64,000 bases of DNA from Candidatus Latescibacterota bacterium (GCA_965248755.1 OZ252149.1:978295-1042294), one strand, 5' to 3'; positions 6,665 through 48,930 are shown, numbered from the stretch's first letter. Program-made: numbers and translations. The notes: generated from the letters alone by a model not told the origin.

Positions 6665-6686
6665 TAGATTGAAATCGGAGAATTAA

Positions 6687-8879: not shown

Positions 8880-8888
8880 GGAAAAAAC

Positions 8889-9623
8889 ATGAAACTTGCC
8901 CAACTGAATTGGCCCGACATGGAGAAGGTGTCAAGAGACCTTGTAGTGATATTCCCTATAGGATCATTCGAACAGCACGGTCCACACCTTCCGTTCGTCA
9001 CTGACACAGCCGAGGTAACGGTGATAGTGGATCGTCTGGATGAAACGATACCGGATGATATTCTATGCCTGCCCACGCAGTGGCTCGGTTACTCTCCTCA
9101 TCACATGAGGTTTAAGGGGACAATAACTGCGAAGTCGGAGACACACATAAATATCATCGTGGAAACTGTAAGCTGTATGATAGATGCTGGCTTCAACAGG
9201 ATCATTGTCCTCAACGGACATGGGGGAAACGTACCTAATATGGGAGTAGCGCTCCAGAGACTCATGGAGGCATGGCCTGATGCGAACGTCTACGGGATAA
9301 ATTGGTACGAATTTGACGAGTTGGAGAAGATAAGAGAGGCAGGGCCCCACGGATGGGGACACGCAGGCGAGATGGAAACGTCCGTTATGATGACGGCCCA
9401 TCCCGATTTAGTCAAGACGGACAGGTTCCAGAAGGACGGCTTCCCGCCTAAATCAAAATTAGCTTCTAAGACCTTACTATTTAAGAAGATAGATCATATT
9501 ACTGCCAGAGGAAACTACGGAGATCCAAATTTTGCCTCAGCAGAGAAGGGAGAACGTTTCCTGAAAACCGCGGTGGATGTCCTCATCGGGATCGTCGAAG
9601 ATATTAAAAAGGGAGCCTTATAG
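8889..9623 (+). CDS. creatininase-family amidohydrolase (creatinine amidohydrolase / MftE / ArfB family)
   Basis: VIFPIGSFEQHGPHLP and LNGHGGN motifs of PF02633; 10-nt spacing to alr suggests co-transcription. Confidence 0.8.
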   Translation: MKLAQLNWPDMEKVSRDLVVIFPIGSFEQHGPHLPFVTDTAEVTVIVDRLDETIPDDILCLPTQWLGYSPHHMRFKGTITAKSETHINIIVETVSCMIDAGFNRIIVLNGHGGNVPNMGVALQRLMEAWPDANVYGINWYEFDELEKIREAGPHGWGHAGEMETSVMMTAHPDLVKTDRFQKDGFPPKSKLASKTLLFKKIDHITARGNYGDPNFASAEKGERFLKTAVDVLIGIVEDIKKGAL

Positions 9624-9773: not shown

Positions 9774-10769
9774 CTACAGCCTTTCCCACTTCCATATCTT
9801 GACCCACCCCTCAGCTGATTCCGGCCCCCAGTTTGGATGAAATAGCTGTAACTGATATAGATTCCCATTTCCATCTACAACAAAATCATCACCATCACCT
9901 GGTCTGGGTACGGTTTTCTTAGGACATTCAGGAATTTTCCCAAGGTACTCTCCACCACTACCGTAAATTTCCATACTAAACTTTCGCTCATCTAGTGCAT
10001 TAACAAATGAGTTGCCTTGTCCATCAATTGCGACTAGATCTCCCACGCGTGAGCCCTGCTTAGTAAATGTTACTGGCAATCCAGAGATGCCTTTTTCAGG
10101 GCGTTGCGCATATCGCTCAAACGCTCCCCAAGGGTCTCCGCCTTCCGGATAATTATGTAACAAAGTATAATCAGAAAAGGCTGAGGTAGTTATTCGGCGA
10201 ACATATCCCCTTGATAGCACAGTCGTGCCTTCCTTGTTAAGAAATAGAGCACGTGAGTCACCGAATATGGATATATCCCCCTTAGAATTAACGCGCAGGG
10301 AAAGCTCAGTAAAACGTCCAAACTCACACTGAAAGTGGCTCACAAACTTAGCCTGATTGTCTAATTTAGAGCCTCTCAAAACCTCCATCGCCCTATTCTC
10401 AGTCACTACATAAATGTTACCCTGGTTATCCGCCTCCAAACTTGCCCCTATGCGTATCCGCCATCCATCTTCAGGCGGCCTCCATGCAAGTATGAACTTT
10501 CCATTCCTGTTAAACTTCTGTATCCTAGCATTCACATCGTCTTGAATCCAGAAGTTACCATTGGAATCAACAGTAAAATCATACGGATATACAGGCTCAC
10601 CTTCTGGCTTTGGCTCACTCCGTCCAAACTCTCCTGGATTTGCCCCTTCTGGAGCGGAGAAAACAACTTTGGGGTTTTTAAACAGAATCTGGGCTTTGGC
10701 TGAGGCAATACAACAGCACAGTAGCGCCGCTGTGATTCCTACGGAAATAGAGAAAATTCTTTGCTTCAT
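9774..10769 (-). CDS. secreted NHL-repeat beta-propeller protein
   Basis: Signal peptide MKQRIFSISVGITAALLCCCIASAKA; repeated ..DSNGNFWIQDDVNARIQKFN.., ..AIDGQGNSFV.., ..VVDGNGNLY.. NHL-like blades. Confidence 0.5.
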   Translation of the reverse strand: MKQRIFSISVGITAALLCCCIASAKAQILFKNPKVVFSAPEGANPGEFGRSEPKPEGEPVYPYDFTVDSNGNFWIQDDVNARIQKFNRNGKFILAWRPPEDGWRIRIGASLEADNQGNIYVVTENRAMEVLRGSKLDNQAKFVSHFQCEFGRFTELSLRVNSKGDISIFGDSRALFLNKEGTTVLSRGYVRRITTSAFSDYTLLHNYPEGGDPWGAFERYAQRPEKGISGLPVTFTKQGSRVGDLVAIDGQGNSFVNALDERKFSMEIYGSGGEYLGKIPECPKKTVPRPGDGDDFVVDGNGNLYQLQLFHPNWGPESAEGWVKIWKWERL

Positions 10770-10855
10770 ATGTATAACTCCTAGTATTTACCGAAGTCTT
10801 TCAGGACCGAATCCTATATGAAGGAACACATTAACTATTTAATTCAGTACAGTGA

Positions 10856-11446
10856 TCAACACCCCTTGGGTCTTAGAACTACTCGATCATGGGTTGAATT
10901 CTCACCCCAATAGGTGTTAGTTGACATATTTCTATCATTTTTTTTGTTAATGCTGTCAGGATCGTCATTATTCTGGTTACCAGATGCTGTGTGTATATCG
11001 ACCACATTATTGCCTTCCAGTTTTGTAATAATTCCACCGTGGGTAAATTCATTGCTATCAACTTTTAAGGCAATGATATCGCCTCTTTTATAGTCGCCTG
11101 TCGCTGTGACTTCATCGAAGTGAGTACGGTTATTAGCGATACCGTCCATATTTGTGTCGCCAATATCTTTCCCGGACACTGCAAGAGTCGTAAGGACAAG
11201 TCCTGAACAGTCCAAACCCTCATCACAAGTACTCGTGAACTCGTTGTTATTATATTCATCTTCCCGTTCAGAGGGTGTACCGTGTCCTCCTCCCCAAGTA
11301 TAATCACAACCATTCAGGTTTTCCGCAATGTCTGCTATACAATCGCCTATGCTAGAGCAGCCGCCACCAGAGCTCCCTATCTGTTTCAAACTAACTACGC
11401 AAAGCAAGCAAATCAGCGCTGTGAGAAGAAATAACCACTTTTTCAT
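10856..11446 (-). CDS. secreted NlpC/P60-family (CHAP-like) cysteine peptidase, probable peptidoglycan hydrolase
   Basis: Signal peptide; YTWGGGHG..LDCSGLV (catalytic Cys) and ..FTHGGII (His) arrangement of NlpC/P60. Confidence 0.65.
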   Translation of the reverse strand: MKKWLFLLTALICLLCVVSLKQIGSSGGGCSSIGDCIADIAENLNGCDYTWGGGHGTPSEREDEYNNNEFTSTCDEGLDCSGLVLTTLAVSGKDIGDTNMDGIANNRTHFDEVTATGDYKRGDIIALKVDSNEFTHGGIITKLEGNNVVDIHTASGNQNNDDPDSINKKNDRNMSTNTYWGENSTHDRVVLRPKGC

Positions 11447-11479
11447 ACTGTAACCCTCCTTATTGTCAAGACTTTATAA

Positions 11480-11786
11480 CGTCCCACCGCTTCTTTTATG
11501 TATCATGAGCAAGACTCTCCTTGATTTCCGCACTAGTTCTGGATAATTCACATGCTCGTCTATCAGCTTCTCCAGAATTTCTTTGGCTTGTTCGTACTCG
11601 CCCACTCTAAAATTGATTTGACCTATCGAGTAACGTTCCACCGCTTCTTTTATGTATCATGAGCAAGACTCTCCTTGATTTCCGCACTAGTTCTGGATAA
11701 TTCACATGCTCGTCTATCAGCTTCTCCAGAATTTCTTTGGCTTGCTCGTACTCGCCCACTCTAAAATTGATTTGACCTATCGAGTA
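11480..11786. repeat. Perfect 154-bp tandem duplication (2 units) at the 3' end of CDS 11607..13442
   Basis: Unit 1 ~11476-11629 and unit 2 ~11630-11783 are identical apart from one t/c difference. The period of 154 is not a multiple of 3, so the second unit is read out of frame and terminates the ORF (..LLDRSNQF*). Confidence 0.85.
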
Positions 11787-13442
11787 TTGAGCCAATGCTA
11801 CAAGGTTGGGATATAACTCGCCTACTTTATGATATTGGGCAATGGCATCCTTGTATTTTCCCTGTTGTTCATAAACGTACCCTAACGCCATTAGAATTGA
11901 TACCCCGCTTTCCCCGAGGGAATCCCTTCTTTGCGCCAAAACCTTCCAAGACTCCTCATACATCTTCGCGACTTGCTCGAGTCCTACGAGTTTGATCCTG
12001 GGATGCACTGTGTGTACGACATCAAACTCATATTGGGCAATGGCATCCTTATATATCCCTTGTCGATAAGCATCTCCAAACGCTATTAGTCGGGAACCTT
12101 CTCGCTCCTTCCAGACCTCTTCATACAACTGGAAGCCTTGATTATATTCTCCCAGTTTGATCTTATATAGCCCCATTTCTACGGTCGCATACTTTGCCAA
12201 ATATGAACCTGAGTCCACAATATTGAGTATCTGCTCACAACTCGTAATAGCTTTTTGATATTCCCCCAAGGCATCATACGCATTAGCCATCACCTGTTGG
12301 GCCTGGCATCTTACAATCTCTGATGATGAAAGATGCACAAGTCTTTCCATTGTCTGAATCACTTTCTGATACTGTCCAGACTGCCAATAAAATCTGCCCA
12401 GAAGGTACACCGCCCGTCTTCTTTGCCTATCTTCCTTGCGGATCTCGACCCACTCTTCCAATTTTGCCTGAGCTTCAGTTATCTTGCCTTCGGAGATAAG
12501 GCCATAAATATCCTGAAGTTCTAAGTCCTCCTGCGGCTCCATGGTCACCACCAGCTCCTGTGAACCTTGTTCTACTTTCACCTTCCCGACGACTAAGTCT
12601 ACCATCTCCGAAGACTCTGTAACACCTTCTATCTGTACCACCCCGTAGGGACCCCCACTCTCGGTTCCCATCTGTACGACCTCGTAGGGATACCCACTCT
12701 CGGTTTCCTTATACCTAATCCAACTTAATACATTATCACGTTCTCCCCCATCATCATCATCTACAATTCTCACATTCAAACCGATTTGAGTTCCTTGAAC
12801 GAATTGCCTTAAACCTAATACTTCTTTTGGTATACGCACTTCAACTGTATATCCGGTATCTGTCTGCTTAACTCCTGCCTCTACTCCTAAAAGCTCCCAT
12901 ATATACGGAATCTCCTGCGCATAGGGATATGGCTCGACATTGAAAAAGACACCCGCACCTTCCAGATGAACCTTTCCCGGTGCGTCCATCACAATCCGTA
13001 TCTCCCCGTCGTTGAGATCAAAATAGTCCTTCTCTTTCCCCCGCAACACTTGTACGTTCCCGTCCAGATCCCCATTAAAAGACACCTCCACAACATCATC
13101 CTGAAACCATTTTCTGCCCCATGTAGTGCCTGAACAGACCAGGTCGTCGCTTACCTTAACCCCTATATACAGGTGATCCCTTCCCACAAAAGTCCGGAAT
13201 CTTCCCGAAATGTCTGCCGCATCTGCTGTGGGTCCAAACCAGAAATGTTCAATATTGACTGCCTCTAACCCTATCTTGTCCCAGTCTGCTAAATCCCCAT
13301 TTAGAGTAATCTTTAGATCTTCAACCAAAATGGTGGAGTAAGTTGTTCCTACAACATCGGACCAGGCTGAAAAAGGGAACGAAAGTGCAAGCGCCAAAGC
13401 TACTATACTGATCTTCCAATCCATGCTAATCCTCCTTTGCAT
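11607..13442 (-). CDS. secreted CBM9-like (DOMON-like) N-terminal domain + TPR-repeat protein, copy A (C-terminus truncated relative to copy B)
   Basis: About 87% identical to 16312..18309. N-terminus has NGDLADWDKIG..LYIGVKVSDD..DDVVEVSF..GYTVEVRIPKEVLG..GLNVRIVDDDDGG, consistent with the family-9 carbohydrate-binding module. C-terminal half has TPR-like repeats. Confidence 0.6.
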   Translation of the reverse strand: MQRRISMDWKISIVALALALSFPFSAWSDVVGTTYSTILVEDLKITLNGDLADWDKIGLEAVNIEHFWFGPTADAADISGRFRTFVGRDHLYIGVKVSDDLVCSGTTWGRKWFQDDVVEVSFNGDLDGNVQVLRGKEKDYFDLNDGEIRIVMDAPGKVHLEGAGVFFNVEPYPYAQEIPYIWELLGVEAGVKQTDTGYTVEVRIPKEVLGLRQFVQGTQIGLNVRIVDDDDGGERDNVLSWIRYKETESGYPYEVVQMGTESGGPYGVVQIEGVTESSEMVDLVVGKVKVEQGSQELVVTMEPQEDLELQDIYGLISEGKITEAQAKLEEWVEIRKEDRQRRRAVYLLGRFYWQSGQYQKVIQTMERLVHLSSSEIVRCQAQQVMANAYDALGEYQKAITSCEQILNIVDSGSYLAKYATVEMGLYKIKLGEYNQGFQLYEEVWKEREGSRLIAFGDAYRQGIYKDAIAQYEFDVVHTVHPRIKLVGLEQVAKMYEESWKVLAQRRDSLGESGVSILMALGYVYEQQGKYKDAIAQYHKVGELYPNLVALAQYSIGQINFRVGEYEQAKEILEKLIDEHVNYPELVRKSRRVLLMIHKRSGGTLLDRSNQF

Positions 13443-13444
13443 TT

Positions 13445-14110
13445 ATTTTAGCAAAACCATTTTCCTTGTCTTCACAAATTTTCCTGCAGCTAGTTTGAAG
13501 AAATACACTCCGCTGGCGACCTTCTGTTCCTGATCATCCAAGCCATTCCATATGACGGAGTAATAATCAGGCGCCTGGGGCTCATTCACCAATGTCCGTA
13601 TCTTCTGCCCCATAATGTGAATATCTTCAATTGCGTGGGAACAGTTTCAGTTCCTCCCAATGTATACTGAATCACTGTAACTGGATTGAACGGATTGGGT
13701 GCGTTCTGCGTGAGCGCGAAGGACTTTGGACGAGCCTTTTTAATCTCTACCAACACCTCGAATGTCCAAGTACGGCCATCCGCAACGCTTAACACTATTG
13801 GTAGCTCGAAGGTTTCACCCACCACTTCTTCCTCCACATACATGGGAATCGTTAGTTTTTCTGTTCCAGTAGACCTTTTAGGTATATCTATCCGCTTCAC
13901 TAGTTCTCCGATCTGAACCCACTCGGGTAGATCTTTCGCTCTCACTTCAACCCCTACCCCCTTTAAAGTCAATTCTCCCTCATTTACTACTGAAAGAAAT
14001 ACTAAGTTATCACCTTCATATAAACCCAACACCGGCAATTCATCTCCCTGCACTACTCCAAGAAACATTACCAGCATCAATAATCCTATGAAATAAATTA
14101 TGCGAATCAT
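13445..14110 (-). pseudogene. small secreted T9SS-CTD protein, copy A, with a 1-nt deletion frameshift inside the C-terminal sorting domain
   Basis: Paralog of 18310..18978. The in-frame ORF stops at 13586 (..FTLWGRRYGHW). A frame-shifted continuation to ~13445 encodes the rest of the CTD (..MGQKIRTLVNEPQAPDYYSVIWNGLDD..KTRKMVLLK). Copy B has 'aatgttgaatat' where copy A has 'aatgtgaatat'. Confidence 0.55.
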
Positions 14111-14721
14111 CGAACCCTCCTTCTTTTGTAGGCTTACTAATTCATAAGAAATTCTTTTTTTTTCTACTAGAATAAATACGTCTTCTCGATCACATCTGCC
14201 ATCGACAATACTATAGTACAATTCCAACCCTTTTTTGATGATAAAATATATATATTTTACAAATATTTAGTATTTATCAATCATTCTACAAATACTATAA
14301 GAAATTTATATCACTGTCATAGTATAGATACGTGAGAGAGACAAAACATCCAAAACTTTTTTGAGTTTTTATAAATTCAAGATAGAGTACAATACCTTAA
14401 AGAAAGTATTAATAAAATTAAGAGTTTAGATGATATATAGAATTTTTGAGGACTTTGAGTGATTTCACAGATTTCAGCCTTTAATCAGCTAGAGTCACTG
14501 GAAATGGAGAGATTTCGCCTACAGATAAACTTAAGGGAAGAGGAAAACAATGTGGGTGAAGTAAGGATGATTTGCCTAAAAGAAATTAGCCTGTGAAAGT
14601 AGATACGTCAACTGGGGATGGGATCATGCACTTCTTCAAGAAAATCTGACACAGTAGCATCGATTTTAGAAGAGTGCAATTCATACCACTTCGATCTGGA
14701 AATATGGAATCCATACATATA

Positions 14722-15549
14722 TTACTCAGAATTCACAGGGCTCTGTGACTCGTTTTTTGATTGCCGGGCAGCTCTTATCTTTTCTATAGCCTTCTTTGCA
14801 TAGATCCTGTTCTCGTACCTACCACTGTTAGGTTGAACATATGGATCTTGCGCTGCTATCTTCTGCAGAATAGGAATAGTGGAAGCATCCCCAAAAACCT
14901 CTAATGCCACGATATTGGGTGTCCTATATGTGACCTTCGAATCCCCTAAAAGAGAATGAAGACGCTCCCTGATATTATCTTTATCTTCTTTAGTCAAAAA
15001 GTTGGGATCCAACGTAGCAATCTTCCTGAGTGTTAACATAGCTCCCCTTCTTATTCTTCGTCGGGTACTACCTAGCGAATCAATAATGTCAGGCACTACG
15101 GAGCGTCCAAGTTCCATCAAACCCCAAGCTACTCCTCGTCCATACTTCATGCCTTCAAGCTGAATAGCTTTGGAGCGCTCATCGCCTATTCTACCCAACA
15201 GCTCTAGAATTCCTAATGTACTTTCCGCTTGTAATTCCCCTGGTGGCCCCTTTAATAGAGGTTCCGTCTCTAGTTCATTGAATCTGTATATTAACGCAGG
15301 CACAGCTGGCCTGACTGCGTCTTTACCCTCTCTACCGAGAAGTCTCCACAATTTAGTAATCACAATGCTTGCAGAACGAAGATCGCCGTGCTTGATTATT
15401 TGGGCATCATCATCTGAAAAAGACCAGCCCTCCACATCAAATAAGGTTCTTTGCTCTTGAGCATCCCCTTGTGTACTTAGCCAATTGGTAGCGGAGAGAA
15501 CTAAAGTGACACATACGAAGAAAAGTAGCAGAGAGTATTTTCGTTTCAT
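14722..15549 (-). CDS. secreted HEAT-repeat protein
   Basis: Signal peptide MKRKYSLLLFFVCVTLVLSA; PBS-lyase/HEAT-like helical repeats (..AVPALIYRF.., ..RRGAMLTLRKIA..). Confidence 0.45.
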   Translation of the reverse strand: MKRKYSLLLFFVCVTLVLSATNWLSTQGDAQEQRTLFDVEGWSFSDDDAQIIKHGDLRSASIVITKLWRLLGREGKDAVRPAVPALIYRFNELETEPLLKGPPGELQAESTLGILELLGRIGDERSKAIQLEGMKYGRGVAWGLMELGRSVVPDIIDSLGSTRRRIRRGAMLTLRKIATLDPNFLTKEDKDNIRERLHSLLGDSKVTYRTPNIVALEVFGDASTIPILQKIAAQDPYVQPNSGRYENRIYAKKAIEKIRAARQSKNESQSPVNSE

Positions 15550-15653
15550 CTTATATTCCTTTCGAGGATCTTTAAACTCATCTTTGGAGATGGAAGCGAA
15601 GAAGGTAAATTCTCAATATTCCATCAGCTTGCACATATATCCATGTCCACCTG

Positions 15654-16181
15654 TTAGCAAGGAGGGACAGAACCAGTTCTTAAATGAAGATGATCAGACT
15701 TCTTTTTTACAAAATCAAAGTAAAGATTAACTCCGGTCTCAATTCTATCCCTTTCACTATCAGATGATAGGGATTGCCATAAAGTATCCCCTACACCATA
15801 CTTCCAACCATCACCAGCTGTACCATACATATGGCGACTTTTTGGTGTACCACCTTCATTATCATTCCAATCGGGAGTTCTGTAAATACTTGAGGCAGTA
15901 ACCTTGTCATCATACCATTCTCGAAAGCAATCCATGTTATCCATGTGTTCTTGGTTCCATACCCAGTAGTTAGCACCATCGTTACTATTCATCTCGTTCT
16001 CTCCGAAATAAGTAGATGTTTGATCACAAGTAAATTCTGCCCTATCAGGTTCTGGTAAACCCAGAGCTCCGTACTGTGATTGTATCTGATGAATCTCGTC
16101 ATGCCACGAATAAGTATTGCTCCACAAAAGCGCTGCTACTAGTAACACGACAAACAGAATTATGATTTCTCTTGGCTGCAT
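15654..16181 (-). CDS. hypothetical membrane-anchored protein (Trp/Asp-rich ectodomain)
   Basis: N-terminal TM helix IIILFVVLLVAALLW; no recognisable domain. Confidence 0.35.
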   Translation of the reverse strand: MQPREIIILFVVLLVAALLWSNTYSWHDEIHQIQSQYGALGLPEPDRAEFTCDQTSTYFGENEMNSNDGANYWVWNQEHMDNMDCFREWYDDKVTASSIYRTPDWNDNEGGTPKSRHMYGTAGDGWKYGVGDTLWQSLSSDSERDRIETGVNLYFDFVKKKSDHLHLRTGSVPPC

Positions 16182-16311
16182 CTTTATCTCCCTTTCCATT
16201 TCACGTTAAGGTTAGCAACCTTATGGTGTTCTGCTTCGCTATGGACTTGTAGTTCATAAAGATAATACTCCTCTCTTCTGCCGGGAATCTAAGCCAGGAT
16301 AATTGTTAGTC

Positions 16312-18309
16312 TTACTGTTCAATTCCCTGCAATTGCAGGAATTCGGAGAAGACTTCCTTAAACACTCCCCGTTTGCGGAACATATCCCCTACAGTGCGAA
16401 TGAGTCGGCCATTGAGGCCCTCATGAGCATGGTCAAGGAGATCTTTATATATGGTTGCAGCTTCCTCATATCTGCCAGCATTCACCATATCCAACGCATT
16501 TCCGACTACCCTCCATTCCTCTCCGGGATAATTTCTTCTCATAGCATAGAGTTGTTCCAAATAAATTTGTGTATTAGCAAGGTACTCTTTAGAAATAACG
16601 TCAGCATAATTATCCAGTACCTTTTCGAACTCCACGATAGCACGATCAACTTCAAACAGTAACCAGTAATTGTAGCCTATCGAATATTGAGCCGATGCTT
16701 CAAGGTTGGGATATAACTCCATAACTTTCTGATATTGGGCAATGGCCTCTCTATGTCTTCCCTGTTTTTCATAAACAGATACTAGCGCCATTAGAATTGA
16801 TACCCAGCTTTGCCCGGGGGAATCTTTTCTACGCTCCAAAACCTCCCAAGACTCTTCATACATCTTCGCCACTTTCTCAAGTCCTACCAGTTTGATCCTG
16901 GGATGCACTGTTTGTACGACATCACTCTCATATTGGGCGATGGCATCCTTATACATACCCTGTCCTTGATAAGCAGCTCCAAACGCTAATAGTCGAGAAC
17001 CTTCTCTTTCCTTCCAGGCCTCTTCATACAGCCGCAAGCCTTGCTCATATTCTCCCAGTTTGATCTTATATAGCCCCATTTCTACGGTCGCATACTTTGC
17101 CACATATGAACCTGAGTCTACAATATTGAGTATCTGCTCACAACTCGTAATAGCTTTTTGATATTCCCCCAAGGCATCATACGCATTAGCCATCACCTGT
17201 AGAGCCTGGCATCTTACAATCTCTGATGATGAAAGATGCACAAGTTTTTCCATTGTCTGAATCACTTTCTGATACTGTCCAGACTGCCAGTAAAATCTCC
17301 CCAGAAGGTACACCGCCCGTCTTCTTTGCGTATCTTCCTTACGGATCTCGACCCATTCCTCCAATTTGGCCTGAGCTTCAGTTACCTTTCCTTCGGAGAT
17401 AAGAGCAGAAATAGCGTGCACTTCTGAGCTCTCCTGCGGCTCCATAGTCACCAACAGCTCTTGTGAACCTTCTTCTACTTTCACCTCCCCAACAACTAAA
17501 TCTACCAACTCGGAAGCCGCTGGAACTGCTTCTACCTGTACTATCCCATAGGGTATCGTACCCTCGGTTTCCTTTTCTCTAGTCCAACTTAAAACATTGT
17601 CATGTTCTCCCCCATCATCATCATCTATAATTCGCACATTCAAACCGATCTGGGTTCCTTGAACGAATTGCTCCACACCTAATACTTCTTTAGGTATACG
17701 CATTTCAACTATATATCCTGTATCTGTACGCTTAACTACTGCCTCTACTCCTAAAAGCTCCCATGTATACGGAATCTCCTGATCGTAGGGATCTGTCACG
17801 GGATAGAAAAAGACTCCTGAACCTTCCAGATGAACCTTTCCCGGTGCGTCCGCCACAATCTGTATCTCCCCGTCGTTGAGATCGAAATAGTCCTTCTCCC
17901 ATATCTCAAACACCGGTATCTTGTCAGCGTCCAGATCCCCATTAAAAGATATCTGCACGACATCATCCTGAAACCATTTTCTGCCCCATGTAGTGCCTGA
18001 GCACACCAGGTCGTCGCTTACCTTAACCCCTATATATAGGTGATCCCTACTCACAAAAGTCCGGAAGTTTCCCGAAATGTCTGCCGCATCTGTTGTGGGT
18101 CCAAACCAGAAATGTTCAATATTGACTGGCTCTAACCCTATCTTCTCCCAGTCTGCTAAATCCCCATTTAAAGTAATCTTTGGATCTTCAACCAAAATGG
18201 TGGAGTAAGTTGTTCCTACAACATCGGACCAGGCTGAAAAAGGGAACGAAAGTGCAAGCGCCAAAGCTACTATACTGATCTTCCAATCCATGCTAATCCT
18301 CCTTTTCAT
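16312..18309 (-). CDS. secreted CBM9-like N-terminal domain + TPR-repeat protein, copy B (full length)
   Basis: 665 aa; signal peptide; same domain order as copy A plus ~150 extra C-terminal residues with additional TPR-like repeats. Confidence 0.65.
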   Translation of the reverse strand: MKRRISMDWKISIVALALALSFPFSAWSDVVGTTYSTILVEDPKITLNGDLADWEKIGLEPVNIEHFWFGPTTDAADISGNFRTFVSRDHLYIGVKVSDDLVCSGTTWGRKWFQDDVVQISFNGDLDADKIPVFEIWEKDYFDLNDGEIQIVADAPGKVHLEGSGVFFYPVTDPYDQEIPYTWELLGVEAVVKRTDTGYIVEMRIPKEVLGVEQFVQGTQIGLNVRIIDDDDGGEHDNVLSWTREKETEGTIPYGIVQVEAVPAASELVDLVVGEVKVEEGSQELLVTMEPQESSEVHAISALISEGKVTEAQAKLEEWVEIRKEDTQRRRAVYLLGRFYWQSGQYQKVIQTMEKLVHLSSSEIVRCQALQVMANAYDALGEYQKAITSCEQILNIVDSGSYVAKYATVEMGLYKIKLGEYEQGLRLYEEAWKEREGSRLLAFGAAYQGQGMYKDAIAQYESDVVQTVHPRIKLVGLEKVAKMYEESWEVLERRKDSPGQSWVSILMALVSVYEKQGRHREAIAQYQKVMELYPNLEASAQYSIGYNYWLLFEVDRAIVEFEKVLDNYADVISKEYLANTQIYLEQLYAMRRNYPGEEWRVVGNALDMVNAGRYEEAATIYKDLLDHAHEGLNGRLIRTVGDMFRKRGVFKEVFSEFLQLQGIEQ

Positions 18310-18978
18310 TTATTTTAGCAAAACCATTTTCCTTGTCTTCACAAATTTTCCTGCAGCTAGTTTGAAGAAATACACTCCGGTGGCGACCTTTTGTTCGTGA
18401 TCATCCAAGCCATTCCATATGACGGAGTAATAATCTGGCGCCTGGGGCTCATTGACCAATGTCCGTATCTTCTGCCCCATAATGTTGAATATATTCAATT
18501 GCGTGGGAACAGTTTCAGTTCCTCCCAATGTATACTGAATCACTGTAACTGGATTGAACGGATTGGGTGCGTTCTGCATGAGCGCGAAGGACTTTGGACG
18601 AGCCTTTTTAATCTCTACCAACACCTCGAACGTCCACGTACGGCCATCTGCAACGCTCAACACTATTGGTAGCTCGAAGGCTTCACCCACCATTTTTCCC
18701 TCCACAAACATGGGAATCATCAGCTTTTCTGTTCCAGTAGACGTTTTAGGTATATCTATCCGCTTCACTGCTTCTCCGATCTGAACCCACTCGGGTAGAT
18801 CTTTCGCTCTTACTTCCACCCCAACCCCCTTTAAAGTCAATTCTCCCTCATTTACTACTGAAAGAAATACTAAGTTATCACCTTCATATAACACCAATAC
18901 TGGCATTTCGTCTCCCTGCACTACTCCAACAAACGTTACTAGCATCAAAAGTCCCGTGAAATAAATTCTGCGAACCAT
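18310..18978 (-). CDS. small secreted protein with T9SS C-terminal sorting domain, copy B (intact)
   Basis: Signal peptide; ..FALMQNAPNPFNPVTVIQYTLGGTETVPTQLNIFNIMGQKIRTLVNEPQAPDYYSVIWNGLDDHEQKVATGVYFFKLAAGKFVKTRKMVLLK is a canonical T9SS CTD. Its stop abuts the ATG of 16312..18309, indicating translational coupling. Confidence 0.7.
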   Translation of the reverse strand: MVRRIYFTGLLMLVTFVGVVQGDEMPVLVLYEGDNLVFLSVVNEGELTLKGVGVEVRAKDLPEWVQIGEAVKRIDIPKTSTGTEKLMIPMFVEGKMVGEAFELPIVLSVADGRTWTFEVLVEIKKARPKSFALMQNAPNPFNPVTVIQYTLGGTETVPTQLNIFNIMGQKIRTLVNEPQAPDYYSVIWNGLDDHEQKVATGVYFFKLAAGKFVKTRKMVLLK

Positions 18979-19332
18979 CGAACCCTCCTTACTTTTATAG
19001 GGTTACTACTTCATAAGAAATTCTTTTTTCTTCTACTAGAATATATACGTCTTCTCGATTTATCTTTAATCACCGACAGTATACGACAAGTTCAGTCCTT
19101 TGTCAAGACTTTTTTTGGTATTATTTTGATAATACCTATATATTTTACAAGTTGTTATATATGTCCAGTATTCTATAAATACTACAATAACTATATGTAA
19201 AAATAGACCATCCCTGCATTAGATTACTGCCCCTGTATGAGAGCAATCTTAGATGGACACTTTGTCGAACACTACCGGGAAATTATCTTCCAACCTGTTT
19301 CTCTTCCCTATAGTCTATCATCTTTTTCAGCA

Positions 19333-20760
19333 TCATATCCTGTCAGCCGTAGAAAGGAGGAACGACTCGATCTCCTCCCTGTATTCACACCCCTTCTTCG
19401 ATTCCCTGAATGTCGTAAGCCACGTTCTCATCTTTTTTGATCCCTCTGCTTTTCCGTTCAACTCGATCAGGCCCTGCAAGATGCCCTTGAACGCTCTAAA
19501 AGGTGTCATTACCCCGATGTGCAGAGCCTGTGCTTCCTCAGATTCCGCATCTGTCGCCTTTAACGTTATCAATCTATGAATAAATTCAGGAACGTCCACA
19601 CCGTCCTCGTAGCCCTTGACCATAGTCAACTTAACGCTGATTTCCCCCGCAGTGGTCTGACCACCTGTAGCCGAGTTCCGCCTGAAGACAAAATCCCCGC
19701 CGTTGATCCATAGCCCCTTGGACAGAATCGACCGCCCCTTTTCCGGATCGGAATAGATAGTCAAGATCTTGGCGATCTCCTCGCTTACGCTGCCCGAATC
19801 CTCCTCATCCAGCAACTCGTGATCATCCTTGCTGTGCCACACTATAAACCTATCACCATTTTCCGAATACTTCATGTGTAGCTCTTTATATCCATCCAGC
19901 CACTCTTCAGCCACAATCCCGATCTTGATAGATTCCTGGCTCCTTTTCGCTTGGGAAAACCCGAATAAGTAGGGCTGGGGCACATAGCTGCCATTTACGG
20001 CGTAGCATTCCGCAGCAGTCCGATACGCTCCGAGCAGCACATCGCTGCTTGGTTCGTTTTTGGCCGCGTGCAGGGCGAACTCTGCGTTCTGTTCCCTGTC
20101 CTTTAGCTCCACCCTTATATGAAAGACGCCTGTAAATTTCCCCTCAGCTATAGACTGCATCTCTACATCCCTAATGTCTTTAAGATCCACCCTCTCTCTG
20201 AGAAGGCACTCAAGAACATGCAGGAGATACCTCGCCCCGTCTCCGGACAGATGGCGATGGACCACAGCCCTCATCTGCTGCGGAGCGATCCCCTCTTCCA
20301 AATAGGCGTTGATGTCGAATCTCTCCTCTCCTCTATCAGGATAGAAGGGCTTAGATTTGAAAGCCACCTGCTCTCCACGGGCGTCAATTATTCTCCAATA
20401 TCGGCCTATTTCCATCTCAAACTGACGAATCTTGAGATAATCAGACGCCTTAAGAAACGCTGTAAAGGCTCCATAAGAGGCAAGCTGACCTAAACACTTC
20501 ATAACGCCCTGAATGCGCTCCTCTAACGTCTGATCTTTCAATAATATCAGCTTCTCGACAAGCTCTTTCTCTTTGCTGTTCGCCTTCAACCATCCATCCA
20601 GATATGAACTCCGTCCATCCGCTTCCGTTCCATTGAAGACATCTATGGCGTCTACCAGTAAGACGCTAATTGAGATCCAGGGGTCCATGTCGGGGTTGAT
20701 CCCCATGAGACGATCATATAATGGATGTTGTCTGATGAAGCGATCCATGTAGCCTCGCAT
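19333..20760 (-). CDS. hypothetical cytoplasmic protein (475 aa), no recognisable domain, immediately downstream of the ABC permease
   Basis: No signal peptide or TM; no motif I can assign. Confidence 0.45.
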   Translation of the reverse strand: MRGYMDRFIRQHPLYDRLMGINPDMDPWISISVLLVDAIDVFNGTEADGRSSYLDGWLKANSKEKELVEKLILLKDQTLEERIQGVMKCLGQLASYGAFTAFLKASDYLKIRQFEMEIGRYWRIIDARGEQVAFKSKPFYPDRGEERFDINAYLEEGIAPQQMRAVVHRHLSGDGARYLLHVLECLLRERVDLKDIRDVEMQSIAEGKFTGVFHIRVELKDREQNAEFALHAAKNEPSSDVLLGAYRTAAECYAVNGSYVPQPYLFGFSQAKRSQESIKIGIVAEEWLDGYKELHMKYSENGDRFIVWHSKDDHELLDEEDSGSVSEEIAKILTIYSDPEKGRSILSKGLWINGGDFVFRRNSATGGQTTAGEISVKLTMVKGYEDGVDVPEFIHRLITLKATDAESEEAQALHIGVMTPFRAFKGILQGLIELNGKAEGSKKMRTWLTTFRESKKGCEYREEIESFLLSTADRI

Positions 20761-43687: not shown

Positions 43688-44743
43688 TTAGAAGTTCAAG
43701 TTTACCGAAAACTTCGTGCTGTCCTGGAGGGGAGAATCCTTCGAACCGCCAGAGATGTAGGCAAAATCGAATCTCACCCAGTCGTACTTGAGACCTACGC
43801 CGAAAGTCGGGGTTTTGATCTCGCCGTCCTTGTCGTAGGTGTAACCGGCTCTCAGAGCGAAAAAGGAGTTTTGATTGGGATCCAGAAAGTACTGATACTC
43901 TCCTCCCAAGTGGATGTCAATTTCGTCTCTTTCATTCTTGAAGGATTCATCTCCCCACGCCTTGACCAAAGCTACCAGGAAGTTACTGTCCCTGGTTATT
44001 AAGGGCTTATAGAAGTCGGTCGTCAGCATTATGTCGTTAAACTCGGTGTTGAGGATCTTGTACGACGCTCCGACTACGATGTGCTGAGGTAGTGGATCTG
44101 CCTGAGAAGCATCTACGAAGCTGATTTTGGGCCCCAGGTTGCGAAGGGCGACTCCGAAGTTGATGCCGTCTTCTGAGCGCCGCAGGTAGCCAAGATCGGT
44201 GGCGAACGTTGTGCCGACGCCATCTCCTCTCTCCTTACCGGTGCCTACACCTGCAAGATTGCTGCGGATTATCTTGAGCGTAAGACCCGCTGCACTCTCT
44301 TTAGTTACAAACGCTCCGTACGAAAGTGAAAGGGCAAAATCGTAGCTGGAGAACGTTCCTAAATCGTTGTTGAACTCGTCTCTCCTTTCCTGAGTTCCCA
44401 AAGTGAGGAACGAAAGGTTGACCCCGAAGTTTCCCCATCCTTCAATAGGCTGAGAGTATCCGACAAACTCGAAGAACAGGTCATCCGCCAGCCCTGGAAG
44501 CCACTTGGTATGGGTAAAGGTCATATCCCTCTTTTTCTGTCCCGCTAAGCCAGCAGGATTAAAGTAGCTGGCTGTGGCGTCGTCCGCTATAGAAACGTAA
44601 GCGTCGCCTAAGGCTGAGGCCCGTGCCCCCGGCTCTATCAACAGAAAGAGGACAGCAGCCTGGCTTTCTGGCGTAGCCTCTGAAGGTGGTGCAAGAGAGA
44701 GGAACATTATCGCTGAGATGACGATACGAATGACTAGTTGCAT
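43688..44743 (-). CDS. porV: T9SS outer-membrane channel/shuttle protein PorV (PorV/PorQ family, FadL-like barrel)
   Basis: Start at MQLVIRIVISAIMFL..; ..GARASALGDAYVSIADDATASYFNPAGLA.. is the conserved PorV/PorQ N-terminal motif; ends ..FSVNLNF; immediately downstream of the PorU-like gene. Confidence 0.75.
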   Translation of the reverse strand: MQLVIRIVISAIMFLSLAPPSEATPESQAAVLFLLIEPGARASALGDAYVSIADDATASYFNPAGLAGQKKRDMTFTHTKWLPGLADDLFFEFVGYSQPIEGWGNFGVNLSFLTLGTQERRDEFNNDLGTFSSYDFALSLSYGAFVTKESAAGLTLKIIRSNLAGVGTGKERGDGVGTTFATDLGYLRRSEDGINFGVALRNLGPKISFVDASQADPLPQHIVVGASYKILNTEFNDIMLTTDFYKPLITRDSNFLVALVKAWGDESFKNERDEIDIHLGGEYQYFLDPNQNSFFALRAGYTYDKDGEIKTPTFGVGLKYDWVRFDFAYISGGSKDSPLQDSTKFSVNLNF

Positions 44744-44784
44744 TTTTACCTCCTTTTGACAAAGGGAATAAAATAATTCCTTTG

Positions 44785-44870
44785 AGATTGCTTCGGGGTT
44801 CCACCCCTCGCAATGACTAAGGCAAAAGCCAAGCAAACTGTCATTGCGGGCGAAGCGAGGCAAACTCAAT
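44785..44870. repeat. Family A element GAGATTGCTTCGGGGTTCCACCCCTCGCAATGACTAAGGCAAAAGCCAAGCAAACTGTCATTGCGGGCGAAGCGAGGCAAACTCAAT between porU stop and porV start
   Basis: Near-identical to 21913-21960 and (reverse-complemented) 37321-37388. Confidence 0.7.
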
Positions 44871-44884: not shown

Positions 44885-47800
44885 CTATCTCATAACTACA
44901 ATCTTATCCGTCTTTTCATCTTTGTCTCCTCCAGATCCGAGGACCTCAATTTTGTAGAGATATACGCCGTTTGCTAACTTGACATCGGGTATCCAACCAG
45001 TCTGGTTGTATCCCGTTCCAGTCTCCCCCTCAAGATCGTCTATAAGTCTGCCTGAAGGTGAGAACACTTTGATCTTTACCCTCCTAGCTGGATGACTGAG
45101 TTCGTACGTGAAGGTCGTTTGGGACGTCATCGGATTCGGATAGCACAAAAGGTTTGAAACCGAAAACTCCCTTTCGGAAGCTACCACGACCCGTACAACC
45201 TTCTTGGATGAATTGTTGAACGTATCCCAGGCTTTAACTACTATAGTATGTTCTCCTTCTGAAAGCTGCGGGAGTTGATACTTCAGAACCCCCATCTGGT
45301 AGCCGTCTTGGTTTACAAAGTTATCCGTAACCTTAAAGACCTTTTCGTCATCTATTTTGATCTGTATCTCGTGCCCTATTTCCCCTGTTACGTTTATTCC
45401 GTTTTCGTCCTGGATAGTCGCTTCTAGAATAGGAGTGCGCGATACAAAATCCCCGTCTTGAAAGCCTTTTTGTCCCTGGAATCCTATCTCAATAGTAGGT
45501 CCTGTCTCATCTTGCACGGAAGTTTCTGCAGTTCCAGTTATAGATATAGACTCAACTTCACCTGTGCCTGAGATCCTGTCGTTCCATACAAACGCGCTTA
45601 TTCTGGCAAAACGCCCCCCGTATGTTATGTCCTTGGGGACCTTAAAAGCGCCCTCAAAGTGACCGTTATCCACGGGGAGGGTGCCTTTAAATATAGTAGC
45701 TCCGGGGAGAAGATAGCTGACGTCTCTGGGAGACAGAATAGTCCTGATTACTTGAATCCCCGAGTCGAAGACCTTTATAATGGCCTGTCCCTGGAAGTCT
45801 GTAGGATCTCCATCAGGTGATAGCACGGAACCTTCAAACGTAACCTCTTCTAACGCCTTGATGTTCTTTGAGATGGCGATGTCAACAGAAAGTCGAGGGA
45901 GGGAAAGCCTTGTGCCTGGGTCCCCGAAGATGGTGTATCTGCGGGTGTTAAAGATAGCGGAAACGTTGACCAGTAGCTTTGCTTCCCAAAATGCCAGGCC
46001 TATGGGGACACTTTCTCTTTCTGAAAGGAAGAGCCTGTCGTAGAATCTCCTGTTCAGATCCATGTTTGAATTGTGAAAGCCTATTCTTGTGGCTCCGATG
46101 ACGGCTATGCACCCTCCCTCTGGCCATTTGACCATCGTCTCGGGCATAGATTCAAAATCAGGGTCGTCGAACCAGCCTGTCTGGCTTGCCGCCAGATACA
46201 TCAGCGGAAGCTTCCTGCCGTTGTTTATCTTGGACATGTCGCTTGAGGCTACAAAGACATGCTCGTGGGCAAGGACATCAGAGTTTCCGTGCCCGACATA
46301 GCTTAAAAGCAACGCCCCTTTATTAAAAGCGTCTATGAATGCCCTGTTGGCATCGGGTTTGAATCTTCCTATTTTGTCAAATTCCATAAGGAATATCTTA
46401 ACCTGATCCAACTCCTGCGGCACAAAATTTAGCGATATATCTTCGGCATCCTGGGCAAAAATGGGCTCTATTCTACCCGGCCTGGACTGCCTTTCGTCAT
46501 CCGCCACGATAATGATCTTGCTTTGCCAGTCTCCTATCTCGGGATCTCTGTCGTAGCCGATGATCTTATCCGAGACAATCTTCGCCTCTTCTTTAGTCTG
46601 AACGGAGATCCTTCCTATAGCCATATCAGGACGCCTGTCTCTGTCGCCACTTACAAGGACGTACCACTCGTCCAGACTGCTTATGCTCTTCTCATAGGGA
46701 GGTATCCAATTACCCGGGCTGATGCCGCTGTTGTTCTTGTAATCGAACGACCCGTCGCCGAAGAGATTGACAAATGTCGGTCTTATCCTCCAGTTGCCGA
46801 AAGTATGCTTCATAAAATCCCTTATGGCTGTAGGATCGAAGACCCCCCAGGAAAACTCATCGTAGATGTGTTCAACATCTATAAGCTCGACAGATAGGGG
46901 CGGTCCAAAGCGGTCATCGGTCTCCCTCCATTCGGCAAGCCTTCTGGCCTCGTCAATAAAGTCCCTGTGCGTAATGAGCAGATAGTCGGCGCCATTATCG
47001 GGGCTTCTGAGGTTGGAGTTTTCCTTCAAAGATATTCTAGCGGGAGACTTCCACTGAGAATCTAACGCAATACAATACTGCATGGGAGGATCTCTTCTAC
47101 CTTGGCCCTGAAATGTGACGGACTCCTTGCCACTGTCGTAGGAAAAGTTGACAACCCTTAAGACATTGAAAGGATCTGAGACCTCAAGAATTTCAAAGAT
47201 CGGACTTAAAACACCGGAAATTTCAAATTGGGCGCTCCCGGAATCGACAGGGGAGGTGAAGAAGAGTTCCCCCTCGTCTATGACGAACTTTCTAGAATAC
47301 TCTAATTCGTACCAGTCCAGTCGGACGGATGTCTTTCCTATCTGTCTTATCTCTAAATCATTAAGTCCGTCCCTGGGAGGCTCGGGAGACTCAAGCTCTA
47401 CGATCTCTGGAGTTCTGTTGTAGAACTGAGCGTTCCCAAGGGAAGAGCCGTTGAAAGAGAACGAAAACTCGTGCTTTACGTTGTCTTGATTGCCTAGAAA
47501 TCTGACTTTAACGTTTGTAGGTCCTTCGGCAGGAGAGGTGATCAACCGCCTTTTGACTCTCCTGTTTCCTGAGTAATCTTCCCAGTACCACCGTTTTCCC
47601 GAGTCCTTCTCAAACGAAAAGAGTTCCTGCTCAACGTGGAGTCTGTCCCTATAACTTAAGGGACGCACAGGGTCAGGTTCCTTGAGACTGCCGTCCTGAG
47701 GGATCATCCTCTTGCCCTGTCCACTCCCGAAGGTAAGCCAATATACGTTCTGTCTGGTAAATTCATTAAGGAAGTACGCAAATTCCTTCTTCCTCGAGAA

Positions 47801-48712
47801 ATAACGCCATCTGGAGATATTGTTCCCGTAGAAGAGCACATAATCGTCCGGATCCAGCCTTCCGTCTCCTTCGTCCTCCACGAGGATAGCTATCTGGTCC
47901 ATATTCTGTCTTCTTGGGGTGAGCATTCCCTCGGGGAGTTGTTCCCCCCCTCCGTAAAACATCTTTATGGTCTTCGGATCGATCCTAGATATGTCCACTC
48001 CGGAGTTTTGGATATCCCGGCCGCTTATGACATGTATTCCATCATCTTCGATGTAAATCTTCAGCCACTCTCCCGAAGCAAAGGGACCATCAGAAATGAC
48101 CTTGGGACTGGAGTCATCTGTACCTTTCCTCCAGTACTTGCCCTGTTGATAGTTGAGAAGGATTTTGTATATTTCTTCTCCTATTTCCGATTCACGGTGA
48201 GAGACGGAGAGGGGACCTTCATAATCGCCGTAGAACCCAATATTAGCTTCTATTTGCTTGTAGGCGACGATATGATCTTTTGAGGGATCGTACACCGCTG
48301 GGTAAAAGGTGAGGGTAACGACACTTTGATCCCTCAAAGTGCCCGGTTCTGAAAGAACCACCGCTTGTGTTGGCGCGTCACGATAGTCCTTTGTGGACTC
48401 AGTCTGAAAAATTTTATGCGGTGGAACACTATCTACTCGTCTGAGTATAGCCCCGCCCTTAGGTGGAACCGCTATCAAGAAGGATTCTGAAGGGAAGACT
48501 ATCGAACCTCTGCCTGTCTCCGCCTGATCCACGTCCATAAAAAGAGCTACGTCCTCCCTTACGTTTCTTTCTAACCGGGCTCCTTCAAATTCATCTATCG
48601 TGTAAACTAATCCTATTCCAGAACGATCCGAACTTGTCACTGCTATATGTCCGGCCTCACTGTACGCCGATAGGCCTAAAATTAAGGAGGTAAACAGAGC
48701 AAAGCGATGCAT
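44885..48712 (-). CDS. porU: T9SS C-terminal signal peptidase/sortase PorU-like protein (large, with own CTD)
   Basis: 1276 aa from MHRFALFTSLILGLSAYS; position directly upstream of porV (canonical porU-porV pair); gingipain/C25-like region (..SYVGHGNSDVLAHEHVF..); C-terminal CTD ..LLCYPNPMTSQTTFTYELSHPARRVKIKVFSPSGRLI..GVYLYKIEVL... The ORF-track start at 48760 is TTG and overlaps the preceding gene. Confidence 0.65.
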   Translation of the reverse strand: MHRFALFTSLILGLSAYSEAGHIAVTSSDRSGIGLVYTIDEFEGARLERNVREDVALFMDVDQAETGRGSIVFPSESFLIAVPPKGGAILRRVDSVPPHKIFQTESTKDYRDAPTQAVVLSEPGTLRDQSVVTLTFYPAVYDPSKDHIVAYKQIEANIGFYGDYEGPLSVSHRESEIGEEIYKILLNYQQGKYWRKGTDDSSPKVISDGPFASGEWLKIYIEDDGIHVISGRDIQNSGVDISRIDPKTIKMFYGGGEQLPEGMLTPRRQNMDQIAILVEDEGDGRLDPDDYVLFYGNNISRWRYFSRKKEFAYFLNEFTRQNVYWLTFGSGQGKRMIPQDGSLKEPDPVRPLSYRDRLHVEQELFSFEKDSGKRWYWEDYSGNRRVKRRLITSPAEGPTNVKVRFLGNQDNVKHEFSFSFNGSSLGNAQFYNRTPEIVELESPEPPRDGLNDLEIRQIGKTSVRLDWYELEYSRKFVIDEGELFFTSPVDSGSAQFEISGVLSPIFEILEVSDPFNVLRVVNFSYDSGKESVTFQGQGRRDPPMQYCIALDSQWKSPARISLKENSNLRSPDNGADYLLITHRDFIDEARRLAEWRETDDRFGPPLSVELIDVEHIYDEFSWGVFDPTAIRDFMKHTFGNWRIRPTFVNLFGDGSFDYKNNSGISPGNWIPPYEKSISSLDEWYVLVSGDRDRRPDMAIGRISVQTKEEAKIVSDKIIGYDRDPEIGDWQSKIIIVADDERQSRPGRIEPIFAQDAEDISLNFVPQELDQVKIFLMEFDKIGRFKPDANRAFIDAFNKGALLLSYVGHGNSDVLAHEHVFVASSDMSKINNGRKLPLMYLAASQTGWFDDPDFESMPETMVKWPEGGCIAVIGATRIGFHNSNMDLNRRFYDRLFLSERESVPIGLAFWEAKLLVNVSAIFNTRRYTIFGDPGTRLSLPRLSVDIAISKNIKALEEVTFEGSVLSPDGDPTDFQGQAIIKVFDSGIQVIRTILSPRDVSYLLPGATIFKGTLPVDNGHFEGAFKVPKDITYGGRFARISAFVWNDRISGTGEVESISITGTAETSVQDETGPTIEIGFQGQKGFQDGDFVSRTPILEATIQDENGINVTGEIGHEIQIKIDDEKVFKVTDNFVNQDGYQMGVLKYQLPQLSEGEHTIVVKAWDTFNNSSKKVVRVVVASEREFSVSNLLCYPNPMTSQTTFTYELSHPARRVKIKVFSPSGRLIDDLEGETGTGYNQTGWIPDVKLANGVYLYKIEVLGSGGDKDEKTDKIVVMR

Positions 48713-48757
48713 ATATAAGCCTTCTGCGGACACCTTGCGAATTTTTTCACCGATGTT

Positions 48758-48930
48758 CAATCTTCGATCTTTTCCGCCTCATCTATGAGCATAATAGGTA
48801 TGTCATCCTCAATGGAATATCGCAGCTTGCACGACCAGCAGGTAAGCTTTTCGTTGTCTTGATCGTATTGCAACTCCCCCTTGCACTTAGGACATGCAAG
48901 GATATCCAGAAGTTCCTTTTTCAGAGACAT
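48758..48930 (-). CDS. Trm112/YcaR (DUF343)-family small zinc-ribbon protein (57 aa; below ORF-track cut-off)
   Basis: Manual translation MSLKKELLDILACPKCKGELQYDQDNEKLTCWSCKLRYSIEDDIPIMLIDEAEKIED; CPxC..C..C pattern and IEDGIP-like box of Trm112p-like proteins. Confidence 0.55.

Follow-up and report, generated by a model that had tools for sequence, protein, structure and literature searches.

A predicted operon pairing a small T9SS sorting-domain protein with a CBM9-like TPR protein, and its putative multicopy cassette with exchanged peptidase genes, in Candidatus Latescibacterota

Introduction

Type IX secretion system (T9SS) cargo is thought to need a C-terminal sorting domain (CTD) of its own, and in described cargo the functional domain and the CTD usually lie on one polypeptide. 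What, then, is the role of a CTD that is encoded beside, rather than within, a larger exported protein? This question is raised by a locus in a 64,000-nucleotide (nt) stretch of a Candidatus Latescibacterota bacterium (GCA_965248755.1 OZ252149.1:978295-1042294), which was analyzed as a whole and is called the window here. Two copies of a gene pair encode a small CTD protein and a big protein that combines a domain resembling carbohydrate-binding module (CBM) family 9 with tetratricopeptide repeats (TPRs). A first-pass annotation, made from the sequence alone, had read them as one old tandem duplication of a two-gene surface module, interrupted by two unrelated genes. Our comparisons suggest instead that the pair heads a recombining cassette with downstream genes for peptidoglycan (PG) peptidases and repeat proteins.

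Conservation of the gene pair

Cassette context was compared in the relatives L001, L002, L033, L091, and L092 and in distant homologs from 7-8 loci. In five independent distant lineages the two genes lie side by side in the same orientation, 3-60 nt apart, and the big protein is 26-43% identical in sequence; the pair or its remnant is kept in five of the six loci whose big protein bears TPRs. At L037, a small gene of 210 amino acids (aa) with a CTD and a match to the small-protein N-domain (phmmer, E = 3e-10) ends 11 nt before the big gene, whose CBM9-like product is cut by the contig end. At L035, a CTD tail lies 3 nt before a big gene of 549 aa, and the contig ends downstream. A 216-aa small gene at L095/L096 (N-domain hidden Markov model [HMM] match, 1e-10, plus CTD) precedes a big gene of 684 aa, a Peptidase_M74 gene (33.3 bits; cut-off, 25), and one for a PD40-like propeller. 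A CTD remnant stands upstream of the 502-aa big protein of L093, which is followed by an NHL propeller homologous to that encoded at 9774-10769 in the window. L094 keeps the CTD, the N-terminal part being cut by a DDE transposase, and its 571-aa big protein is followed by a Cys-rich 120-aa protein and then a LolA-like protein. The sixth locus, L097, has no CTD gene upstream of its 493-aa big protein and encodes Peptidase_C39 plus DUF1573 downstream. Two further loci (L034 and L036) encode CBM9-only proteins, which have neither TPRs nor a small partner. A search of genomes with the small protein gave 31 loci that were uninformative on pairing, since they matched mostly through the generic CTD; a CBM9-TPR neighbor was found in L002 only.

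The first-pass annotation had named an unconserved pairing and a failed CBM9 profile as grounds on which its module interpretation would lose support. Because the pair is kept in five of six distant loci and the Pfam profile PF06452 passed its cut-off, that interpretation keeps its support on both counts. We read the small CTD gene and the CBM9-TPR gene, from sequence comparison, as a conserved operon under purifying selection.

Domains of the two head proteins

The big proteins of both copies match PF06452 (CBM9_1; cut-off, 23.4 bits), copy B with 56.1 bits (E = 5.6e-15) and copy A with 58.3 bits (E = 1.2e-15), and more than 10 Pfam TPR families exceed their cut-offs, in agreement with the TPR-containing C-terminal half that had been proposed. 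An AlphaFold2 (AF2) model of the copy B protein, built from a 30-sequence alignment, has a mean predicted local distance difference test (pLDDT) score of 73.7 and shows residues 28-254 as a beta-sandwich, joined by a disordered linker to a helical solenoid (289-658); the CBM9-like domain lies mostly at pLDDT 80-95, and the solenoid forms a TPR superhelix of approximately 14 helix pairs. In Foldseek searches the sandwich matched 1i82_A (template modeling score TMt, 0.83; E = 1.3e-8) and 7nwn (TMt, 0.79), and the remainder of the protein matched consensus TPR proteins and superhelices. The predicted domain thus agrees with family 9 CBMs, such as CBM9-2 of Thermotoga maritima Xyn10A (PDB 1i82), in profile match and in fold (0.79-0.83), but it differs in sitting in no carbohydrate-active enzyme and in a sequence identity of only 13-16%. 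Neither the big protein nor the cassettes contain a glycoside hydrolase domain. We consider the N-terminal domain CBM9-like, a predicted DOMON-type sandwich, short of a proven CBM.

When the CBM9-like half was searched exhaustively with HMMER, 547 cluster representatives matched, 102 of them at E <= 1e-10; CBM9_1 was found in all of the top 30 relatives and recognizable TPRs in 12 of these 30. The big protein was also said to carry a signal peptide and no CTD of its own, and this description held: the copy B N-terminus resembles a signal peptide, the protein gave no match to a custom-built CTD HMM, and its C terminus is helical in the AF2 model. No lipobox cysteine is present in the N-terminus (MDWKISIVALALALSFPFSAWS/D).

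The CTD call on the small protein was likewise confirmed, with 30.3 bits for TIGR04183 in copy B (cut-off, 23) and 30.1 bits for FlgD_ig (cut-off, 27); Pfam Por_Secre_tail reached only 18.8 bits, below its cut-off of 27. The protein consists of an N-terminus (MVRRIYFTGLLMLVTFVGVVQG/DE) that by eye resembles a signal peptide, an N-domain of approximately 115 aa, and a T9SS type A CTD. It thereby shares with type A cargo (TIGR04183/Por_Secre_tail, processed by PorU/PorV) the CTD above the TIGR04183 cut-off and probably a signal peptide, and PorU and PorV genes lie 25 kb away in the window. It differs from such cargo in that its passenger is a single, presumably all-beta, Ig-like domain of a very rare family, with relatives only in P0006, P0236, L037, and L096, and in that its gene always precedes that of a CTD-less partner. 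A single-sequence AF2 model of the copy B protein was all-beta but too poor (pLDDT, 36) to assign a fold to the N-domain. Two other loci encode giant proteins of 1341-2191 aa (L049, 617-6763; L052, 2275-12898) that fuse CBM9-like domains and a T9SS CTD, unlike the split pair.

PorV and PorU are required for processing of CTD cargo. Since the window encodes PorV and a PorU-like C25 sortase (Table 1), the T9SS is plausibly active in this host.

The four-gene cassette and its copies

All cassette genes lie on the (-) strand, in the order cassette B small, big, Peptidase_M15_3, and HEAT-like genes, then an AT-rich spacer and cassette A (Table 1). The order small, big, M15_3, HEAT-like recurs in the related assemblies L002, L033, and L092, and M15 homologs lie 3' of the pair in L001, L002, L033, and L092. 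The two intervening genes, taken for unrelated in the first-pass annotation, thus accompany the pair in other genomes, and by this comparison the repeated unit consists of four genes, those between the copies included.

Table 1. Cassette genes, upstream regions, and T9SS genes of the window.
Feature	Position	Strand	Description
Cassette B gene 1, small protein	18310..18978	(-)	222 aa, intact
Cassette B gene 2, CBM9-like + TPR big protein	16312..18309	(-)	665 aa
Cassette B gene 3, Peptidase_M15_3	15654..16199	(-)	181 aa
Cassette B gene 4, HEAT-like repeat protein	14722..15549	(-)	275 aa
Cassette A gene 1, small CTD gene	13443..14110	(-)	Frameshifted; tblastn hits fall in two frames
Cassette A gene 2, CBM9-like + TPR paralog	11607..13442	(-)	611 aa
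Cassette A gene 3, NlpC/P60 peptidase	10856..11446	(-)	196 aa; in the M15 position
Cassette A gene 4, NHL-repeat beta-propeller	9774..10769	(-)	331 aa; in the HEAT-like position
Cassette B upstream region	18979..19210	(-)	Sigma-70-like promoter, ~95-nt leader, Shine-Dalgarno sequence AAGGAGG, AT-rich strings
Cassette A upstream region	14111..14335	(-)	Same leader and AT-rich strings; 12-nt deletion
PorV	43688..44869	(-)	PF19572, E = 1.4e-22
PorU-like C25 sortase	44885..48760	(-)	1291 aa; Peptidase_C25, E = 6e-80

A diverged duplication was borne out: the open reading frames (ORFs) stand where they had been placed, and 11776-14190 (copy A) aligns to 16676-19059 (copy B) with 89-92% nt identity by blastn. 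The protein identity of 85-90% that had been given holds for the small proteins (approximately 89%, with 87% at aa 1-170 and 95% at aa 165-222) but not for the big ones, which are 78% identical over 590 aa. The duplication is, however, more than the single old tandem pair first described. At the syntenic site L002 carries one cassette and L033 carries two, as does the window. In L091/L092 the cassette stands at a different chromosomal site, with an orphan HEAT-like gene upstream of it in L092. On a distant contig, L001, a small gene with 41% identity is followed by a big gene reduced to its C-terminal TPR tail and then by M15 and HEAT. One contig of 4,540,735 bp holds at least four intact paralogs of the small gene in addition to the two copy A fragments. 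The cassette is thus, from these alignments, a multicopy, recombining family.

Traces of this recombination are seen within the big gene. The C termini of the two big proteins are nonhomologous beyond approximately aa 520-556, inside the last TPRs, and the exchanged segment therefore comprises the last TPRs, the peptidase, and the repeat protein. Big gene A is itself a mosaic, with a first 1 kb approximately 96% nt identical to cassette 2 of L033, beyond which identity falls to 59-75% in patches located in a CBM9 loop and the linker. In cassette 1 of L033 the big gene is interrupted at approximately aa 561 by an inserted ORF of 396 aa (6156-7346, [-]). This ORF, which has no Pfam match, probably encodes an unclassified insertion sequence (IS) transposase. 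It lies near the loss of homology between copies A and B, and its insertion point may mark a recombination-prone site.

The small gene of copy A had been started at 14227, which is a TTG; we place its start at the ATG at 14110, and the gene is frameshifted by a 1-bp deletion near 13617, within the CTD (ATATTC-ACATT versus ATATTCAACATT). It is either a true pseudogene or an assembly indel. The two are indistinguishable because a related metagenome-assembled genome (MAG), L002, has its small, big, M15, and HEAT genes all split. In this closest public relative, the four genes (10001-14284) are broken by frameshifts or stops while flanking ORFs look intact, which reflects either complete decay of the cassette or indel errors made in assembling a repeat-rich region.

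Tail genes and their evolution

The third gene of cassette B had been described as a small membrane protein, which is incomplete: it matches PF08291 (Peptidase_M15_3) with E = 9.5e-11 and 42.2 bits (cut-off, 23.2), the LAS zinc motifs SRHMYGTAGD and DHLHL are visible in translation behind a hydrophobic N-terminal export segment, and a PHROG endolysin family is matched with E = 7e-9. Its counterpart in cassette A has a signal peptide and a marginal match to PF00877 (NlpC/P60; 24.2 bits versus a cut-off of 23), with DCSG and downstream His residues visible in translation. The fourth genes also encode signal peptides. The cassette B product has a weak HEAT_2 match below cut-off (E = 1.5e-4), and that of cassette A has sequence matches to NHL domains in the PDB (E = 2e-10); PDB sequence searches with the M15, NlpC/P60, and HEAT-like proteins gave marginal matches only. 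The HEAT-like gene accompanies M15 in every M15 cassette and could encode that peptidase's cognate partner or its inhibitor. Across all loci, the third gene takes four nonhomologous peptidase forms (M15_3, NlpC/P60, M74, and, in one subfamily, C39), and the fourth encodes a HEAT-like protein, an NHL propeller, or a PD40-like propeller. In that one CBM9-TPR subfamily, a C39 plus DUF1573 protein (L097, 1724-2701; L038, 1373-1589) stands in place of the PG peptidase.

Both the M15 and the NlpC/P60 proteins match PHROG endolysin and tail families. A phage origin was considered and rejected: IMG/VR yielded no relatives of the big protein, and no phage genes lie nearby.

Within the species-level clade, the small protein is 89-99.5% identical and the big protein 95-98%, with 78-81% between the A and B types of the latter. 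The corresponding values are 39% for M15a versus M15b, 72% for M15b versus b', 51% for HEATa versus HEATb, and 81-88% for HEATb versus b' or the orphan. Ratios of nonsynonymous to synonymous substitution (dN/dS, Nei-Gojobori) are 0.19-0.32 for the small gene and 0.23-0.36 for the big gene, against 0.89 for M15 b/b' and 0.77-1.13 for HEAT-like copies, at an unsaturated dS of 0.06-0.17. Among close strains the head is constant and the tail is M15a, M15b, or an unrelated NlpC/P60, the enzyme being a separate gene and not a fused domain. The tail is thus fast-evolving and exchanged, with the head under purifying selection. IS insertions, frameshifts, and remnants are common (copy A of the window, L001, L033 cassette 1, L093, and L094).

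Expression signals

All cassette copies conserve approximately 230 bp upstream of the small gene, and the upstream similarity reported earlier between copies A and B was recovered over approximately 225 bp, with indels. Of the two AT-rich strings proposed as promoter-like, ATATATTTTACAA occurs exactly twice in the window (14250 and 19138), and TTCTACAAATACTA is found at 14284 and again, differing at one position, at 19171; shuffled sequence gave 0 matches for either. The strings are thus shared by both copies, but as promoters they are less convincing, lying upstream of a better sigma-70-like candidate, CTTGAC-17-TATAGT, which in copy B reads TTGACA-17-TATACT (19106-19078; 11/12 matches). A 12-nt deletion that removes the -35 box is common to copy A (14150-14200) and cassette 2 of L033; downstream cassettes may therefore rely on read-through from the preceding cassette.

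The leader of approximately 95 nt between the -10 box and the small-gene ATG (18979-19075 and 14111-14205, [-]) is nearly invariant in 6/6 cassette copies and ends in AAGGAGG. In the window, L002/L033, and L092 it is more conserved than much of the coding sequence and holds a near-palindrome (AAGAATTTCTT), and it possibly acts as an operator or a regulatory RNA; scans of the window gave no match in Rfam (gathering threshold) and no tRNA.

Translational coupling of the pair, as first proposed, rests on one of two possible start arrangements. The small-gene stop TAA directly abuts the big-gene ATG (MKRRIS...) in both copies, but a second ATG lies 18 nt downstream (18291 in copy B; MDWK..., 659 aa), after an AAGGAGG, and is the start used by gene callers (P0086 and the L033 annotation). 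Under either start, the small and big genes are almost certainly cotranscribed.

Discussion

The reading that we favor, with a probability of roughly 0.4, is a T9SS-linked cassette in which a constant scaffold head serves a swappable PG peptidase and its cognate inhibitor. It is preferred because it best explains the polymorphism and has two precedents, the TANFOR toxins and the Tse1/Tsi1 pair. All four cassette proteins would enter the periplasm via Sec. The TPR solenoid would bind the peptidase, the last repeats covarying with peptidase type; the CBM9-like domain would bind a cell-wall or surface glycan; and the CTD protein would connect the complex to the T9SS and the cell surface. The peptidase could then be deployed outward against the walls of other cells or cell-wall debris, and the repeat protein would act as a periplasmic inhibitor that shields the producer's own wall.

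Of the two precedents, TANFOR toxins without a CTD are encoded beside T9SS CTD genes in Bacteroidetes, and their export by the T9SS has been hypothesized (PMC7073777). The cassette resembles these polymorphic toxins in placing CTD-less, signal-peptide-bearing candidate effectors beside a CTD protein, with variable toxin and immunity-like genes. It differs in lacking a TANFOR domain, in encoding the variable enzyme as a separate gene, in having CBM9-TPR as its constant part, and in its phylum, Latescibacterota. The second precedent comes from the T6SS (type VI secretion system), where Tsi1, a periplasmic partial beta-propeller, neutralizes the NlpC/P60-type amidase Tse1 (PMC3391265). As in such T6SS effector-immunity pairs, an NlpC/P60 or metallopeptidase PG hydrolase gene is followed by one for a periplasmic repeat or propeller-like protein, and as in the vgrG-adaptor-effector-immunity order, a constant 5' module precedes a swappable 3' pair, with orphan immunity-like genes. 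In contrast to T6SS pairs, no T6SS genes were seen, the cassette enzymes carry Sec signals, delivery would be two-step via the T9SS or would not occur at all, and the repeat proteins fall outside the known Tsi/Tai families.

Several points weigh against the favored reading. Contacts, localization, and lytic or immunity activity of the cassette proteins are all inferred, and we know of no route through the T9SS for a protein without a CTD. Profile and sequence searches matched the repeat proteins to no known immunity family. The M15a N-terminus might hold the protein in the membrane instead of being cleaved as a signal, and the dN/dS near 1 need not mean an arms race, since redundant copies under relaxed constraint could give the same value. 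Among the distant homologs, whose context is known from only 7-8 loci, L093 has a propeller without a peptidase, L094 has neither, and L097 has no small CTD gene.

A bolder form of this proposal appears unlikely to us: that the cassette is a T9SS-linked polymorphic bacteriolytic system outside Bacteroidota, in which the CTD carrier and CBM9-TPR adaptor export or display interchangeable CTD-less PG peptidases, with HEAT or propeller proteins conferring immunity. Such a system would parallel the logic of T6SS VgrG, adaptor, effector, and immunity protein, but by hitchhiking on two-step secretion. Our literature search found no paper on T9SS hitchhiking, and a full-text search found none naming both Latescibacterota and type IX secretion. 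Each domain is of a known kind, and we found no description of the conserved operon and cassette logic in the literature.

The conserved downstream PG peptidases suggest a periplasmic adaptor, in competition with surface tethering. The alternative that fares best, although we think it somewhat unlikely, is self-directed wall remodeling, in which a periplasmic CBM9-TPR protein scaffolds or regulates the cell's own PG peptidases in the manner of NlpI or LbcA, the repeat protein has a regulatory role, and the small CTD protein serves as a coexpressed surface protein or a T9SS-linked signal. Scaffolding and targeting of PG endopeptidases by TPR proteins is established (NlpI, PMC7049810 and PMC11211486; LbcA-CtpA, PMC6050968 and PMC8764530), the peptidases of the cassettes come from PG-directed families, and the big protein bears a Sec signal but lacks a CTD. 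As with the NlpI/LbcA lipoproteins, there is a genetic link between a TPR solenoid and cell-wall NlpC/P60 and metallo-endopeptidases. However, the big protein lacks their lipobox Cys and would therefore not be a lipoprotein, it has an added CBM9-like domain, its peptidases are polymorphic and multicopy, and no Prc/CtpA-type protease is adjacent (no cassette contains an S41 protease gene). Wall remodeling would also leave unexplained the conserved CTD partner, the strain-level swapping of nonhomologous peptidase and partner pairs, the tail dN/dS of 0.8-1.1, the orphan partners, the multicopy arrays, and the IS decay.

We consider it quite improbable that the cassette is a surface tether, in which the T9SS-sorted small protein anchors a glycan-binding CBM9-TPR protein for adhesion or glycan capture. 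The conserved pair with a CTD on its small partner only, the confirmed CBM9-like fold, and purifying selection on both head genes would fit such a tether, under which the downstream genes are incidental. Against this, several lineages have peptidase and repeat-protein genes downstream of the pair, so that these are not incidental; neither glycoside hydrolase genes nor SusC/D-type uptake genes are linked; the tether needs an export route for the big protein, and none is known; and in L001 the CBM9 domain is lost, although the small gene and the TPR tail are still present. Still more doubtful is the view that these are decaying, redundant accessory genes of no joint function, adjacent by common descent or block duplication, with neutral turnover of the tail. 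Common frameshifts, IS insertions, and remnants and a tail dN/dS near 1 speak for decay, but the pair survives with intact frames at 26-43% identity (L037 and L095/L096) and a dN/dS of 0.2-0.36, and the tail is repeatedly a cell-wall peptidase of a different fold, which neutral turnover would not lead one to expect. That a collapsed or misjoined repeat merely mimics a duplication is scarcely credible, despite the many frameshifts in related long-read MAG assemblies (L002), because an independent assembly (L033) holds two cassettes at the same locus, and the copies differ by 8-11% in nt and in 3' gene content.

Under the favored scaffold-and-peptidase reading, a CTD-only carrier beside a CTD-less adaptor and swappable peptidases would be a testable case of indirect T9SS cargo recruitment, and the cassette would also offer a case for a T9SS role in interbacterial competition or cell-wall scavenging. 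The PG peptidases give the CBM9_1 family of 547 cluster representatives its first functional context. Even conservatively read, the data define a new conserved operon of a small CTD protein and a CBM9-TPR protein.

Flanking genes and further T9SS-related loci

The cassette array is flanked on one side by genes for an alanine racemase and a creatininase-family amidohydrolase (7770-9623, [+]) and on the other by genes for a family 5 (peptide) solute-binding protein and a permease. These flanks could hint at cell-wall peptide use; the second locus, L092, has entirely different neighbors. Just upstream of the array, directly downstream of the SBP_bac_5/BPD_transp_1 peptide-type ATP-binding cassette transporter, lies a gene for a 475-aa protein (19333-20760, [-]) that has no Pfam, NCBIfam, or PHROG match and is approximately 92% identical in L002 and L033.

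Elsewhere in the window, a 549-aa protein (33755-35404, [-]) has a FlgD_ig-type C-terminal sorting domain 37% identical to that of the small protein (tblastn) and an N-terminal part without a Pfam match. Downstream of the PorU-like and PorV genes, two proteins of approximately 1000 aa are encoded on the (-) strand, one with FG-GAP repeats (40624-43671) and one with PD40 and Peptidase_MA_2 (37420-40521), and the region 37420-48760 (-) may form an operon for the T9SS attachment complex together with large proteins that are its cargo or accessories.

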